The notes: a model not told the origin generated them from the letters alone. A DNA stretch of 37,264 nucleotides from Candidatus Pacearchaeota archaeon CG10_big_fil_rev_8_21_14_0_10_31_59 (GCA_002763115.1 PFCW01000001.1:44491-81754); one strand, 5' to 3'. Positions 8,532-25,127 are shown, counted from the stretch's first letter. Made by a program: numbers and translations.

Positions 8532-8569
8532 AAAAATTGATAGGAGAGCTTTAAGTTACTTGTAATAAA

Positions 8570-10009
<1,440 letters not shown>

Positions 10010-10455: not shown

Positions 10456-10459
10456 CTGA

Positions 10460-13285
10460 TAGATGCTACAAAAGCTACTAGACGGATGGATTGGTTTAGG
10501 TTGCGACGAAGGGCGTGGCAAGCTGCGATAAGCTTGGGGGAGATGCATGCAGTCTTAGATCCCAAGATTCCCGAATGCTGAATGAGTCTTTAGAGACATT
10601 TCGAAAGAAAAGCATACCTGGGGAATTGAAACATCTTAGTACCCAGAGGAAAAGAAAATAGTAATGATTCCCTTATTAGCAGCGAGCGAAAAGGGAAGAG
10701 AGCAAACCGAATCTTTCTTGAAAAAGAATAGAGATGTGGTGTTGGTTTACCTGCAGCTGTTGAATCGAAGTTGACTGGAAAGTTACACTTTAAAGGGTGA
10801 TAGTCCCGTAGATGTAGACAGTATGGCTTAGCCAACAAAGAGTAACGTCCGCTGGATTGGGGGCGTGAATATGGCTTAACTAAAAGCTAACTCTAAATAT
10901 AAACCTAAGTCCGATAGCGAATTAGTACTGCGAAGGAACTCTGAAAAGTACTCTTAACAGAGGGTTAAAAGACCTGAAATCTAGTAGTTATAGACTGTTG
11001 CGGTTCTAAGGAATTGCAACGTACGTTTTGAAAAACGGGCCGGGGAGTTTACCTAATTGGCGAGGTTAATGCAAAAGAAGCCGAAGCGAAAGCGAGTCTG
11101 AAAGGGCGTTTTAGTCAATTGGGTAAGACCTGAAACCGAGTGATCTAGCCTTGGGCAGGTTGAAGCTTCTCTTACGAGGAGTGGAGGACCGAACTAGTGC
11201 TACGGACAAGTGCTTGGATGATCTGAGGCTAGGGGTGAAAAGCCTATCTAACTCGGCGTTGGCTGGTTCCTGTCGAAATATGCCTTAGTATAGCTTCATT
11301 TAGTTGGTTAACGAGGTAAAGCTACGGATTGGGTGTACAAGGTTGTAATGACTGCGGTATCCTATCCAACTCAGAACTTGTTAACAATGTAAAATGAGAC
11401 AAAGCGCGTGCGGGTAAGCTGCATGTACAAGAGCAGAACAATGCAAACTAAAGTTAAGGTCCTTAAGTTCATGTTAAGTGCATCGAAAGTGGTTTTAAGC
11501 CCAAGACAGAAGGGAGGTAGGCTCAGAAGCAGCCACCCTTTAAAGAAAGCGTAACAGCTCACCTTTCGAGGTTTAAAGCGCTGAAAATGGACGGGGCTAA
11601 ACATGGCACCGATACTTTAGACAATTCTCAGTTGAGGATTTGTGGTAGGCAGGCGTACTGCTTGGACAGAAGTTTTCTCGAGAGAGAGGATGGACCGAGT
11701 AGTAATGAAAATCCCGGTATTAGTAGGATCTAAGTTTCCTGAGAACGGAAACCGTCGAAAGGGGTATGGGTTCCTCGGCAATGTCGTTCAACCGAGGGTT
11801 AGTCGGTCCTAACTTTAACCTTAATATAGTTATTGGAATGGGAATCAGGTTAATATTCCTGAACTAGATGGCTAGAGCGCGAGCGAACTAATATAAATGA
11901 CGCTTTGAGATAAGCAGAACATTCTATATGGATGTCTTTCTGTATAACTCTGTGGAGTGTTGTAATAACGAGAAGCAGAAGAAAACAAAAAGCTAAATTT
12001 GTTGAGTCTTAGAGCCAGTGAAAAATTTTATTAGCGAACCATCTAACCGTACCTAGATCTGACACAAGTACCCTAGCTTAATAGGCTAAGACGGGAAAGG
12101 TTAATCTTCGTAAGGGAATTCGGCAATCTAGCCCCATATCTTCGGTATAAGGGGTGCCTATTTCTGTGTTGCAGAAGTTCAGCAGAAGTAGGTTGCAATT
12201 ACAAGGACTGCCCGACTGTTTATCAAAAACGTAGCCGCCTGCAACCCCGAAAGGATATGTATAGGCGGTGAGATCTGCCCAGTAATGGTGTCTAAAACTC
12301 TTTTTCAAGAGAGCTAAGGTCCATTAAACGGCGGGCCTAACTATGAGGCTCTTAAGGTAGCGTAATGCCTTGTCGTTTGAATAACGACGTGCATGAACGG
12401 TTTAACGAGGTGGTCGCTGTCCCTACGAAGAACCTTCCGAACCTTTCATTTTGGTGCAGGGACCAAAGACATCTATTGGGAAGCGGAGACCTTGTGGAAC
12501 TTTACTGCAGCCTGCGACTGTTTTTCACGAATAATTACATAGCGTAAGTAGGAGATGTTATGTTTCAACTTTCGGGTTGGAAATAATCACCAATGTAAAA
12601 CTACTTAGTTGTTCTTGAAAAACTTACTCGATAGAGGACACTTGTTGGTGGGCAGTTTGGCTGGGGCGGCACCCTACCGAAAAGATATCGGTAGGGCCCA
12701 ATGGTAAGCTCATTGTGGTTGGAAACCATGAAAGGAGCGTAGAGGTAAATGCTTGCCTGACTGTGTCTTGCACAGCAAGAGACGCAGACGCGAAAGCGCG
12801 GCTCAGCGAACCCTTATAGTCTTTTAGTGGGACTTAAGGATGACAGAAAAGTTACCCCAAGGAAAACAGGGTGGTCGCGCCCGATAGTTCACATTGACGG
12901 CGCGGCTTGCTACATCGCCGTCGGCTCTTCCTATCCTGGGTGTGCATAAGCATCCAAGGGTGCGGGAGTTCACCACTTAAAAGGAATCGTTAGCTGGGTT
13001 AAGAACGTCGTGAGACAGTTTGTTTGATATCTAATAGATGTGTTGTTGACTGAATGAAAGGACGAAGTAGTACGAGAGGAACCTTCGTCCGGCGCCTCTG
13101 GTGTACCGGTTGTTTTCATACAGCAGGCCGGGTAGCTACGCGCTAACTGATAAATGCTGAATGCATCTAAGCATGAAGCAGCTCGTAAAAATAGTCAACC
13201 AAGGCCGTTATAGAAGATAACGTTGATAGAGTGGGTGTGTAAGATTCAAGGTAACGAGAATTTCAGCACTCCACAACTAATAGCC
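10460..13285 (+). rRNA. 23S rRNA (ends approximate, +/- 20 nt)
   Basis: GACGAAGGGCGTGGCAAGCTGCGATAAGC near the 5' end, GACTGTTTATCAAAAAC, PTC region at 12850-13030, sarcin-ricin loop AGTACGAGAGGAAC at 13069-13082. Confidence 0.9.
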
Positions 13286-13312
13286 TTAAACTTTTTTCGA
13301 AAAAAAGTTTAA
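13286..13312 (+). repeat. TTAAACTT...AAGTTTAA hairpin 3' of 23S
   Basis: TTAAACTTTTTTCGAAAAAAAGTTTAA followed by ACAAAAA, the same flank as after tRNA-His. Confidence 0.7.
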
Positions 13313-20994: not shown

Positions 20995-21210
20995 ATGTTT
21001 TACATGTGGTGTGATAAAAGAGTAAAAAGACTTAAATGTTTCGACCTGAAACTGGTAAAAATTTCTATATTTGGTTTTGCATGGTTTATAGCTGCTTTGT
21101 TTGTAAAACAACCAGTTTGGTTCCACAATTTATGGTGGGTTTGGCTGGCAGTCGGAGTAATTTTAGCAATACATCCATTGATAAGATTTTGGAGTAAAGA
21201 AAAGAAATAG
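20995..21210 (+). CDS. Small membrane protein, hypothetical
   Basis: Two predicted TM helices. GAGGTG Shine-Dalgarno 7 nt upstream of the ATG. Confidence 0.45.
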   Translation: MFYMWCDKRVKRLKCFDLKLVKISIFGFAWFIAALFVKQPVWFHNLWWVWLAVGVILAIHPLIRFWSKEKK

Positions 21211-21265: not shown

Positions 21266-21573
21266 GTGGTAAGTGACTAACTGACTATCGCTATTTTGCT
21301 GTAAAAGGCAAAGAAGTGAGGAAGGTCCGCCCACCCTCCGAATTTTTGGAGTAGTGTTAATCATGAAAGTGATATGCAGAAATGCATGGCAACATTACAG
21401 AAACGACACAGTTTTTGCTGAGCTGTGAATCAAGCGAGGAGCTAAGAAGCAAAAAATTTGATGAGACGAATGTCCTGACTGGTGCAAGGTCTTTAAGACT
21501 GCTTAGTCAAATGTCAGATGTTCAATTTTCGAAAGAAATGAACAACATAAGGTGGCCTAAAGTCACTTACCTT
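21266..21573 (+). ncRNA. rnpB: RNase P RNA (archaeal)
   Basis: P1 pairing GGTAAGTGAC (21268-21277) with GTCACTTACC (21562-21571). GAGGAAGGTCCGCCC (CR-I/P4) at 21318-21332, ACAGAAAC, and ACATAAGGTGGCCTAA (CR-V) at 21545-21560. GC-rich relative to its surroundings. Confidence 0.85.
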
Positions 21574-21575
21574 TT

Positions 21576-22613
21576 TTAGAAACCATTTATTACTAATTCC
21601 AAACCAGCATTAAAATCATATGTTCTAGTTTCTGAATTGTAAGTTCTAGAAATCTCTACTTTTGGAAGATATCTTGTTATCTCTGTTACATTTCCTTCTT
21701 CCTTAGATGAGTAAAATGCAAAACCCAATCCATATTTAATAATTTCATTACCATATGGGGTTATGCCCTTAGTTACAGACACATCCAATGGAGTTAAATT
21801 TCCAGGTACTATTTGACATCCCACGCTCCATCCATTATAAAAATTCTCTATTTGAGTATCGTAATATTGACCATAAGTACCTCTTATATTTTTTATCTGT
21901 CCAAGTATTGGCACATCCTCACAAAAAGAGATTTGAGTCATAAAACCATTTAAGTCCCATTGATATTCTCTCTTAACATTAATCGGGTCATGAAAAACAT
22001 AAGCACCTTCTGCACTTAAAACAGTTTTTGGTAGCCAGTCCCACTCTTCAAAAAATTGGTCTGTTGAAAATCCAATCTTCCCATGTAATTTCAAAGCTCC
22101 AAGTGGAACATCTAATGCACTAAAAATATTTGTAGCATAATTTTCATAAGTAACTTTTCCTTCAAAATTTTCTAAACTTGCTTTTGTACCAAGTAAAAGA
22201 TGTAATGCATCAACTCTTGTCGTATCTGTGACTTTTATTAAATCACCAAGACTGTCTCTTCTGAGTTCATATTCAAAATGCTGATAATCTAAATCTCCAA
22301 AAATTCTAACCTCGGAACCTTTCTCCCAAAAAGGAACTGCATCAAAACTTCCAAAAGCATTAAAGTAAGTATGTGTTCCTTGTGTCCATCCTATACCTAA
22401 AGATCCACCACCGAAACCATTTTTTACATAATTTTCGAATTGTAATCCAACTGACTCTTCACTGAAATCCATAGTTGTTTCCCCTCTGTTATTAATTCTG
22501 TCTGCACCCTCTCTCCAATCCTGAACTTTTCCCAAAGCTATTGTAGGTGCGAACGTTAAAATCGCTCCTAATGTTAATAATGCAAGATTTTTAAGTCCAT
22601 TTCTTTTAGGCAT
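21576..22613 (-). CDS. Secreted protein with OMP-like beta-barrel features, hypothetical
   Basis: Signal peptide LKNLALLTLGAILTFAPTIALG. About 14-16 amphipathic Gly/aromatic-rich strands. C-terminus YDFNAGLELVINGF ends in Phe. Confidence 0.65.
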   Translation of the reverse strand: MPKRNGLKNLALLTLGAILTFAPTIALGKVQDWREGADRINNRGETTMDFSEESVGLQFENYVKNGFGGGSLGIGWTQGTHTYFNAFGSFDAVPFWEKGSEVRIFGDLDYQHFEYELRRDSLGDLIKVTDTTRVDALHLLLGTKASLENFEGKVTYENYATNIFSALDVPLGALKLHGKIGFSTDQFFEEWDWLPKTVLSAEGAYVFHDPINVKREYQWDLNGFMTQISFCEDVPILGQIKNIRGTYGQYYDTQIENFYNGWSVGCQIVPGNLTPLDVSVTKGITPYGNEIIKYGLGFAFYSSKEEGNVTEITRYLPKVEISRTYNSETRTYDFNAGLELVINGF

Positions 22614-22726
22614 GAGATATATACAAAAAATATCTTTATAAATATTTATATTATTTTTTGATTATATCATAACGAACATTTATCCAAAACAGAAAGTTTT
22701 TTATATGAAGCATTTTTAAATTAAAC

Positions 22727-22888
22727 ATGGCAAAACCAGGAATAAGATTACCAGGTTCATTCGGCGGTATACAAAGATATAGCGAAGAATATAAAAGTAA
22801 AATACAGATAAAACCGATTCACGTTGTCATTATATTAATTGTAGTTGCTGCAGCAACTTTGGCATTAAAATTTCTTATAAAATCTTAA
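22727..22888 (+). CDS. secG: Preprotein translocase subunit Sec61beta (archaeal SecG)
   Basis: Below the ORF-track cutoff. Reads MAKPGIRLPGSFGGIQRYSEEYKSKIQIKPIHVVIILIVVAAATLALKFLIKS, with the GG(I/L)xRY motif and a C-terminal TM helix. Confidence 0.75.
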   Translation: MAKPGIRLPGSFGGIQRYSEEYKSKIQIKPIHVVIILIVVAAATLALKFLIKS

Positions 22889-22895
22889 TTCTAAA

Positions 22896-23231
22896 ATGTT
22901 TAATGTCAACCCCAAACAATTGAAAGGTATGATGAAGAGTATGGGCATTTCTCAGGAAGAAATAGATGCTGAGGAAGTAATAATAAAAACAGCTGAAAAA
23001 AATATTGTAATAAAACCAGCTGATGTCGTTAAAATAAAAATGCAGGGGCAGGAAACTTTTCAGATTTCCGGGGAAATACATGAAGAGGAAATTGATGAAA
23101 GTATAGAGATAGACAAGGACGACATTAAAACCGTGGTGGAAAAAACCGGTTGCAGTGAGAAACTAGCAAGAGAATATTTAGAGAAGAATGAAGGCGATAT
23201 AATAAAAACAATAAAAGAGTTGAAAAAATAA
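22896..23231 (+). CDS. nac: Nascent polypeptide-associated complex protein (NAC plus UBA)
   Basis: NPKQLKGMMKSMGI followed by a NAC beta-barrel segment. C-terminal UBA-like LAREYLEKNEGDIIKTIKEL. Confidence 0.9.
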   Translation: MFNVNPKQLKGMMKSMGISQEEIDAEEVIIKTAEKNIVIKPADVVKIKMQGQETFQISGEIHEEEIDESIEIDKDDIKTVVEKTGCSEKLAREYLEKNEGDIIKTIKELKK

Positions 23232-23268: not shown

Positions 23269-23748
23269 ATGGCTTTCGAAGAAATTTTAAAAATCCTTGA
23301 TGAAGCTGAAAAAGAAATCAGGACCGCAGATCATATAATTTACATAACATTGCCAATAGTCAACGATAATAAATTACTTATCACTGCTATAGAAGCATTG
23401 CATAAAGCTTCATTAAAAATTATTGAAGCATTATTAATTTACGAGCAAATTTTCAAAGGTGCTCGATTGTACAAGGACAAGGAGGAAAATTTCAGGCAGT
23501 TTAAAGAGTTGGCAATTAAATATGAAATAAGCCAAAAACAGCTGAAAGATATTGAAGCTTTGTTTTTTTACATGGAAAAACATGAAGGTTCTTCCATAGA
23601 ATTTGTAAGACGGGATAAATTAGTCATAATGTCAGAAAATCTTGAAATAGAGGCTGTTAATGCAGAAGTTATAAAAAATATAATATTTTCCATAAAAAGT
23701 CTTTTGAATAAAGCAAAAAAACACATCAAAAATAGTTCTGAGGACTAA
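23269..23748 (+). CDS. Hypothetical helical protein, paralog 1
   Basis: Weak but collinear similarity to 23851-24300: ADHIIYITL / AQHLLYVSL and EFVRRDKLVI / EFRKNVALII. Confidence 0.6.
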   Translation: MAFEEILKILDEAEKEIRTADHIIYITLPIVNDNKLLITAIEALHKASLKIIEALLIYEQIFKGARLYKDKEENFRQFKELAIKYEISQKQLKDIEALFFYMEKHEGSSIEFVRRDKLVIMSENLEIEAVNAEVIKNIIFSIKSLLNKAKKHIKNSSED

Positions 23749-23850: not shown

Positions 23851-24300
23851 ATGCTGAGAGACATTGATAAGGAAATGAAGAGTGCCCAACATCTTTTGTA
23901 TGTTAGTTTGAAATATACGAGAACCGGAGATGTCATCATAAATTTGATGAGAAGATGGGCTAATATGATAGAATTTTCCCTTGAAGAAATACTTATTCAT
24001 GCCAAAAAAACAAAAAAACTTAAAATTATCCCACATGCACCAAAATTAAAACAAAGGGCTGTTATAGATATTTTTAAAAATAATAATACAATCAAGGAAA
24101 TTATCGCATTATACTCATTCTTCAGAAAAGTTGACAAATTACAGAATATAAGATCAAATGAATTCAGAAAAAATGTTGCTTTGATAATCTTAGATGAAGG
24201 AAAAGAAGTTATTATTAATATGGAAAAGCTTAAGGAATGGGAAAAACTTCTTAATGATTTTATTAAAGTAATGCTAAACTTTTTAAAAAACAAAAAATAA
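23851..24300 (+). CDS. Hypothetical helical protein, paralog 2
   Basis: See 23269-23748. Confidence 0.6.
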   Translation: MLRDIDKEMKSAQHLLYVSLKYTRTGDVIINLMRRWANMIEFSLEEILIHAKKTKKLKIIPHAPKLKQRAVIDIFKNNNTIKEIIALYSFFRKVDKLQNIRSNEFRKNVALIILDEGKEVIINMEKLKEWEKLLNDFIKVMLNFLKNKK

Positions 24301-24361: not shown

Positions 24362-25127
24362 ATGGCAAGAGTAATTGTTGTAACATCGGGGAAAGGGGGG
24401 GTTGGAAAAACAACTACAGCTGTAAATCTTTCCATGGCTCTGAATAATCTTGGAAAAGATGTCTGTTTGGTTGATACTAATCTGACAACACCTAATGTCG
24501 GAATTCATCTCGGAGCTCCGGTTGTTCCTATAAACTTACATCATGTTTTATCCGGAAAAAACAAGATTCATGAAGCTATTTATCTTCACCACTCTGGAAC
24601 AAAAATAGTTCCTGCTTCTTTATCATTAAATGATTTGAATGATATCAAATATGAAAGACTAAAATATGTTTTAAGAGATTTAAGAAGATTTTCTGATATT
24701 TTAGTTTTGGACAGCGCAGCAGGCTTGGGTCAAGAAACCATATCTTCGATAAGATATGCTGATGAGATTATTGTTGTCAACAAATCCTGAACTTCCGGCA
24801 ATTACTGATGCTTTGAAAACAATAAAATTAAGCGAGAATCTTGGAAAATCTGTTTCTGGAGTTGTTGTTACAAGAGTAAGAGATGATGAGCATGAGTTGG
24901 CAATAAAAAATGTTCAGCATATTCTTGAAAGACCTGTTATCTGCATAATTCCAGAGGAAGATTCTGTAAGAGAATCAATTTCTTTGAGGGATGCTGTTGT
25001 GAACACACACTCAAAATGCGAATCATCCAAAGCTTATTACAGGCTGGCTTCAATGCTGATAGGCAAGCATTATCCCGAGGAAATAAATTATAAAAAAAGT
25101 TTCTGGCAAATATTGTTTAGAAGATAA
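24362..25127 (+). pseudogene. minD: MinD/ParA-type ATPase interrupted by a +1 frameshift near 24779
   Basis: ORF1 carries the deviant Walker A SGKGGVGKTT and ends ...ADEIIVVNKS*. ORF2, in the next frame, continues ...TNPELPAITDALK. Removing one A at 24779/24780 restores EIIVVTNPELPAITDA. Confidence 0.8.

Follow-up and report, generated by a model that had tools for sequence, protein, structure and literature searches.

Transmembrane β-barrels are markers of the outer membranes of bacteria, mitochondria and plastids, and they depend on the Omp85 insertase. OmpG (PF09381) and CymA (PF16941) are monomeric 14-strand outer-membrane channels of Gram-negative bacteria. In a 37,264-nucleotide stretch of the genome of Candidatus Pacearchaeota archaeon CG10_big_fil_rev_8_21_14_0_10_31_59 (GCA_002763115.1, PFCW01000001.1:44491-81754; hereafter the window, from whose first letter positions are counted), a gene on the minus strand at 21576–22613 encodes a 345-residue protein for which an earlier note had proposed a barrel of the bacterial outer-membrane type. 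We consider it plausible, if short of probable, that this protein is a Sec-exported, anchor-less, porin-like β-barrel, and we infer the barrel fold, the membrane location and the channel function alike.

The candidate is similar to OmpG and CymA with respect to size class (a mature chain of 317 residues versus ~280 for OmpG), the presence of a Sec signal peptide, the lack of an anchor, a Gly/aromatic-rich and Lys-poor composition, β-periodicity and a terminal Phe, and these two are its nearest named families by ESM features (0.90–0.91). Unlike OmpG and CymA, it has Asn rather than an aromatic residue at position −3 and has no detectable sequence or profile similarity; hhalign and phmmer comparisons with Escherichia coli OmpG, OmpF, OmpT and OmpA gave no signal. 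Unlike the hosts of those channels, the archaeon has no known outer membrane, and no Omp85, LptD, TolC or Skp was found in its genome. The best structural neighbours of the candidate's ESM Atlas model are instead DUF3570 (PF12094) and BBP2 (PF10082) proteins of Verrucomicrobiota, Pseudomonadota and Thermodesulfobacteriota, with template-modelling (TM) scores of 0.66–0.74 by query and, for DUF3570, 0.62 by target, over 260–283 aligned residues; both sides of this comparison are predicted models, the query being of low confidence, and there is no accompanying sequence match. To our knowledge, neither DUF3570 nor BBP2 has a known function.

A literature search for outer-membrane-type barrels in DPANN archaea found no description apart from one sentence mentioning a possible distal relative of the PopA-like porin superfamily in Candidatus Altiarchaeales (Nat Commun 2025, PMC12228718). 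The PopA-like porin is oligomeric and lipid-trapping, is 549 residues long, comes from a double-membraned lineage and is unrelated to the candidate in sequence. The view that membrane barrels are not established in archaea therefore holds for the literature, but not for the genomes: among 401 genomes from the phylum, 20 contain PF13505 (OMP_b-brl) matches at E ≤0.001, six of them above the curated cut-off. Among the loci fetched, the AT-rich archaeal ones (L009, L010, L013, L015 and L018) encode proteins with signal peptides and canonical C-terminal β-signals. The L010 protein (L010:1495–2292, minus strand; genome G435, from the same order, 34% guanine plus cytosine (GC)) has 266 residues, a signal peptide and the C-terminus FGFRFSF, and its gene lies between those for SRP54 on one side and a RIO/Bud32-type kinase on the other. 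Its 90% cluster includes the NCBI entry MBS3076496.1, 'outer membrane beta-barrel protein [Candidatus Pacearchaeota archaeon]', as well as another copy on a 380-kb contig, and a sequence search with it returned no relatives beyond this cluster. Two other PF13505 loci, L011 (G229:C24) and L012 (G054:C17), have GC contents of 67% and 49%, compared with ~30–40% at the other fetched DPANN loci, and their contigs are probably bacterial contamination of the bins. A bacterial-style barrel in DPANN relatives is real and has barely been described in print.

The candidate and the DPANN PF13505 proteins come from the same order and share a signal peptide, a length of 260–350 residues, the lack of an anchor, a Gly/aromatic-rich composition, a setting among archaeal housekeeping genes and near-orphan status by sequence. 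The latter, however, reach the Pfam profile and end in sequences such as FGFRFSF, GLKYEF and GVRFSF, and the candidate does neither. In direct comparisons with them, phmmer with its filters off gave E values of 0.38 or worse, and hhalign against an alignment of seven DPANN PF13505 matches, one of which (L012) is probably from a contaminant contig, returned a probability of 0.2%; PF13505 and PF09381 profile searches of the whole candidate genome gave no match. The case for the candidate is weaker than that for its PF13505-matching relatives, because the evidence for its fold consists of one language-model prediction, which is of low confidence.

The open reading frame (ORF) itself is secure. 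It was found where the earlier note had placed it and runs on the minus strand, with 345 codons from an ATG start to a TAA stop (21576–21578). The chance probability of a stop-free run of 345 codons at 31% GC is ~5.5e-12, and shuffling the window 30 times produced no open frame longer than 186 codons; the ORF is therefore not a product of chance. The gene is real and native to the archaeal genome. Residues 1–28 (22530–22613, minus strand) form a predicted signal peptide comprising a basic n-region (K3, R4 and K8), a 12-residue hydrophobic core (LALLTLGAILTF) and a c-region ending in A-L-G, features that agree with the earlier description; by the −3/−1 rule, cleavage would occur before K29. Windows of 19 residues with a Kyte-Doolittle mean ≥1.6 start only at residues 9, 10 and 12, making residues 6–31 the sole strongly hydrophobic stretch on this window length, and a scan of the mature chain for a hydrophobic helix or C-terminal anchor found none. 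There is no Cys near the cleavage site and hence no lipobox, so the protein is not a lipoprotein. It displays the combination of a signal peptide, with predicted cleavage, and no mature hydrophobic helix that is a feature of barrels of the MBB clan. The mature domain (residues 29–345; 21579–22529, minus strand), a candidate barrel of 14–16 strands, is Gly/aromatic-rich, Lys-poor and β-periodic; within the proteome the protein ranks 588 of 602 for Gly (10.7%), 558 of 602 for Phe, Tyr and Trp together (13.9%) and 32 of 602 for Lys (4.9%).

The ESM Atlas, which holds the exact sequence of the candidate, points to a barrel by two routes. In the search by sequence features, the nearest clusters score 0.90–0.94, and those that bear a name are without exception families of bacterial outer-membrane barrels (OmpG, CymA, phospholipase A1, Serpulina VSP, autotransporter β-domain and Phage_OMP). 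In the search by structure, the ten nearest neighbours that have a Pfam assignment or a name are each a bacterial outer-membrane barrel or a protein that contains one, namely DUF3570, 'beta-barrel porin 2', BBP2_2/OMP_b-brl and TonB-dependent receptor barrels; they align with residues ~33–345 of the candidate, with TM scores by query of 0.54–0.69 for the whole protein and 0.57–0.74 for the mature part, over 240–294 residues. Three long hairpins recur, at very low predicted local distance difference test (pLDDT) scores, in both of two AlphaFold2 runs: residues 72–87 (22353–22400), residues 211–234 (21912–21983), predicted as two 11-residue strands joined by a 2-residue turn, and residues 318–335 (21609–21662), all on the minus strand.

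Periodicity was quantified as a z score, comparing the mean period-2 hydrophobic moment with that of shuffled sequences, and was set against E. coli K-12 barrels (OmpF, OmpA, OmpG, OmpT, FepA, NfrA and the usher ElfC) and soluble β-rich exported proteins (fimbrial subunits, chaperones and CusF). For the mature part of the candidate, the z score is 2.45 with Kyte-Doolittle values and 2.82 with the interface scale, and its period-2 moment ranks 443 of 462 in the proteome. The corresponding ranges are 0.4 to 4.8 and 2.0 to 4.8 for the E. coli barrels, 2.4 to 5.7 and 1.0 to 5.4 for the DPANN PF13505 proteins, and −0.5 to 2.7 and −0.33 to 2.2 for the soluble β controls (fimbrial proteins and CusF); α/β proteins range from −1.7 to 0.6 on the Kyte-Doolittle scale. 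A scan for dyad patterns at a loose threshold identified 7–8 clear alternating 9-residue segments, seven of them in the mature part, where at least seven were reached in 14 of 500 shuffles. The candidate is β-amphipathic beyond its composition. The C-terminal segment YDFNAGLELVINGF (residues 332–345; 21579–21620, minus strand) is an alternating strand that ends in Phe and constitutes a partial β-signal.

Several of the results weigh against a barrel. The Atlas model is of low confidence (pLDDT 0.57, predicted TM score 0.47), and by the Atlas tool's own calibration a feature score of 0.9 is attained by 4–10% of shuffled proteins, and one third of all shuffled proteins obtain ten concordant families, such that composition alone may drive the feature match. 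AlphaFold2 without an alignment gave unusable models, with pLDDT values of 29.8 for the full chain and 29.4 for the mature chain. Of the 14–16 amphipathic segments in the earlier note, only the 7–8 seen at the loose threshold and the above-shuffle periodicity were recovered; at stricter thresholds, the dyad count is not above that of shuffles and is lower than in classical outer-membrane proteins. On Kyte-Doolittle periodicity, the soluble fimbrial β-sandwich controls score like the candidate. With the β-signal defined as an aromatic last residue and hydrophobic or aromatic residues at −3, −5, −7 and −9, the C-terminus has Phe at −1 and Val at −5, but Asn at −3, Glu at −7 and Gly at −9, and the terminal Phe does not fall in phase with the hydrophobic side of the last strand (−14, −12, −10, −8, −6 and −4). 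Position −3 is Tyr in OmpF, OmpG and OmpT, and His in FepA and NfrA. The proposed outer-membrane signature is thus only partly present, and the β-signal is incomplete. No barrel family, nor any other Pfam family, matched the candidate at E values up to 10. Finally, the genome, at 89% completeness, yielded neither an insertase nor any other second-membrane marker.

This last result came from the search for BamA/Omp85 or second-membrane markers suggested in the earlier note, in which PF01103 (Omp85), PF04453 (LptD) and PF02321 (TolC) gave no match, and PF03938 (Skp) gave only a 13.6-bit sub-threshold coiled-coil match inside a PD-(D/E)XK nuclease gene. The homology searches were likewise negative. 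No NCBIfam profile matches; a PDB sequence search found no relative (one 12.8-bit match is noise), and a PHROGs search gave one 15-bit match of unknown function, also noise. A phmmer search of 1.84 billion representatives and a word-indexed search of 5.8 billion clusters each returned the candidate protein itself only, and back-translated scans of metagenome and genome contigs found no relative. Six-frame searches of 60 genomes of the order and 400 of the phylum yielded no homologue and four weak matches, of which three proved spurious on inspection, one falling on a PIN-type toxin, one on the G/F region of DnaJ and one on a surface protein; the fourth is a 51-residue frame in L003. As far as these sequence searches reach, the candidate is a complete orphan.

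If the protein is a porin-like barrel, the Sec system would export this lineage-specific protein and signal peptidase would release the signal peptide, leaving a chain with neither a lipid nor a helical anchor. The mature chain would fold into a monomeric antiparallel β-barrel of ~14–16 strands, in the size class of OmpG and CymA, and would serve as a passive channel in a lipid layer that lies beyond the archaeon's cytoplasmic membrane; this could be an outer layer of the archaeal cell that has gone unrecognised, or a partner's membrane. Because no Omp85/BamA-type insertase was found encoded, insertion would be spontaneous or would proceed via an unknown factor. A bolder version, which we regard as unlikely, is that the archaeon makes true BamA-free barrels and places them in a lipid layer other than its cytoplasmic membrane, in the most interesting form the membrane of its host cell, in which the barrel would act as a metabolite conduit for a 0.64-Mb parasite. 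On this same unlikely reading, archaea would have a hidden class of porins that insert themselves, and the gene would be one of its fast-evolving members.

The main rival, possible but on the unlikely side, is that the candidate is a soluble or surface-adsorbed secreted β-rich protein (a sandwich, jelly-roll, lectin or adhesin-like fold) that mimics the barrel pattern. One-dimensional tests such as the dyad-strand score cannot separate outer-membrane proteins from soluble fimbrial β-sandwich proteins: ElfA, ElfG, YcbU and YcbV have dyad densities and Kyte-Doolittle z scores (2.1–2.7) like those of the candidate, and they too have alternating aromatic C-termini. Sequence patterns alone do not settle whether the protein is a membrane or a soluble one. 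The non-canonical β-signal, the lack of a barrel profile match and the low-confidence structure models are all consistent with a soluble mimic, and DPANN archaea are rich in secreted surface proteins. In contrast, among the nearest ESM neighbours to which a family or name is assigned, neither the feature search nor the structure search returned a soluble β fold, and the interface-scale z score exceeds those of all seven soluble β controls. The candidate also lacks an anchor, unlike the other β-rich surface proteins of this genome, which carry a C-terminal transmembrane helix and a Lys-rich tail.

A sub-case of the porin-like barrel, which we consider distinctly unlikely, is that the protein does not belong to the archaeon's own envelope but is a barrel-forming effector delivered into a partner's membrane, to serve there as nutrient conduit or lytic pore. 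All of the evidence for a barrel applies to it, and the lack of an insertase or second-membrane marker of the archaeon's own is consistent with it. The assembly (0.636 Mb in 16 contigs, 0.8% contaminated) is, like those of its relatives (0.5–1.0 Mb), of a size typical of partner-dependent DPANN, and possible attachment to bacteria has been argued for small-genome Pacearchaeota and Woesearchaeota, an SLT transglycosylase serving as the marker for the suggested bacterial partners of small Pacearchaeota (Castelle et al., 2021; PMC8204110). However, the SLT domain (PF01464) was not found in this genome, the gene stands alone rather than in an operon with an attachment or secretion system, and a partner-directed role requires that the barrel fold be right first.

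It is improbable that the gene is an orphan of recent origin or very rapid evolution that has no stable, selected fold or function and is possibly not usefully translated. The failure to find a homologue among the representatives, the clusters and the 460 related genomes, the AlphaFold2 runs in which no fold emerged and the location of the gene at a spot where gene order differs from that of relatives are consistent with such an origin. Against this stand the length of the ORF at 31% GC, the well-formed signal peptide, the non-random composition, the order-dependent periodicity and a synonymous codon score (rank 513 of 599) showing that preferred codons are used better than the genome average. 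The identical protein was also called on 37 public contigs from several sources (NCBI, JGI, ENA and Logan; the longest of 155.6 kb), with L141H the sole variant seen. Since the reference set contains no other genome from this family, orphan status is to be expected for a fast-evolving surface protein; sequence searches likewise show a relative's PF13505 protein to be an orphan.

The idea that the gene is bacterial DNA, either a mis-binned or chimeric piece or a very recently transferred porin gene, is close to refuted: contamination does occur in such data, as L011 and L012 illustrate, but gene context and codon use reject it here, the gene having a GC content of 33% (genome mean 31%), a third-position GC content of 18% and no bacterial homologue in the phmmer and cluster searches, and lying on a contig with archaeal 16S (8568–10009) and 23S (10457–13300) ribosomal RNA genes. 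The horizontal acquisition considered in the earlier note cannot be shown without any homologue, and codon use carries no foreign signature; the note's account of the neighbouring genes is confirmed by RNA and Pfam profile matches, and its case for an unchimeric contig by these, by codon use and by the identical protein on the 37 contigs. The archaeal RNase P RNA gene (21269–21570, plus strand; 134 bits, E 1.2e-37) is convergent with the candidate gene, its 3′ end lying 5 nucleotides from the stop codon. Divergent from the candidate are the genes for Sec61beta (22727–22888, plus strand; PF03911, E 1.4e-6), which starts 113 nucleotides upstream of the candidate gene, and NAC (22896–23231, plus strand; PF01849, E 4e-14), with a major facilitator superfamily transporter gene farther along.

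Around the start of the gene, a TATA-box-like element, TTTATAAA (22635–22642, minus strand), has its first base 29 nucleotides upstream of the ATG. It would fit a leaderless or near-leaderless archaeal mRNA, although AT-rich spacers readily produce such matches; a sigma-70 promoter scan gave no relevant match. At the other end, a terminator-like hairpin (21550–21568) followed by a T-run marks the 3′ end of the RNase P RNA, the whole element (21550–21578) overlapping the stop codon of the candidate. On the candidate's own strand, the first downstream T-run is only at ~21320, so that the transcript may extend across the RNase P RNA gene in antisense orientation.

Comparison with 29 relatives showed that the gene order around the RNase P RNA differs from that in this genome, and none of the 29 has a positional orthologue of the candidate beside this RNA gene. 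Several families of the order have the RNase P RNA gene immediately adjoining a conserved gene pair whose products are ~159 and ~149 residues long (loci L020, L021, L023, L027, L034, L036 and L043), whereas here the candidate, Sec61beta and NAC genes intervene; the candidate occupies a rearranged spot. The pair itself (23269–23748 and 23851–24300, plus strand) belongs to no Pfam family. Directly upstream of the RNase P RNA gene lies an ORF of 71 residues (20995–21210, plus strand) with no family match, whose hydrophobic stretches suggest two membrane helices. A MinD/ParA-type ATPase gene (24362–25127, plus strand) is broken into two ORFs (24362–24790 and 24756–25127) that overlap and lie in different frames, with the break at the junction of ...DEIIVV and NPELPAIT...; in the relative at L023, which has the same neighbour gene, the ParA/MinD-type gene is open for at least 224 residues, up to the edge of the locus. 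The split reflects a frameshift, a sequencing error or a pseudogene.

The periodicity screen also revealed a second porin-like candidate, encoded elsewhere in the same genome (G000:C2 8752–9627, minus strand, equivalent to L049:4753–5628, minus strand), between the NifU gene and the L7Ae-S28e-EF1alpha genes. It has 292 residues from a GTG start, a signal peptide, 11.5% Gly, 14% Phe, Tyr and Trp together, and the strongest β-periodicity in the proteome (z 5.5). Its C-terminus, GAGVRLYLSVPKKLD, consists of GAGVRLYL plus seven residues. It matches no Pfam family, lacks a homologue in 400 genomes of the phylum and is unrelated to the first candidate. Its 90% cluster comprises 23 near-identical variants, with each of the 15 listed occurring on at most 12 contigs.

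If the porin-like reading of the gene at 21576–22613 is right, a barrel in an archaeon lacking BamA would raise the questions of which membrane it enters and how it is inserted without a machine, and it would provide a handle on nutrient uptake by genome-reduced DPANN cells. The protein is small, stands alone and is easily expressed, which makes the question testable at the bench.

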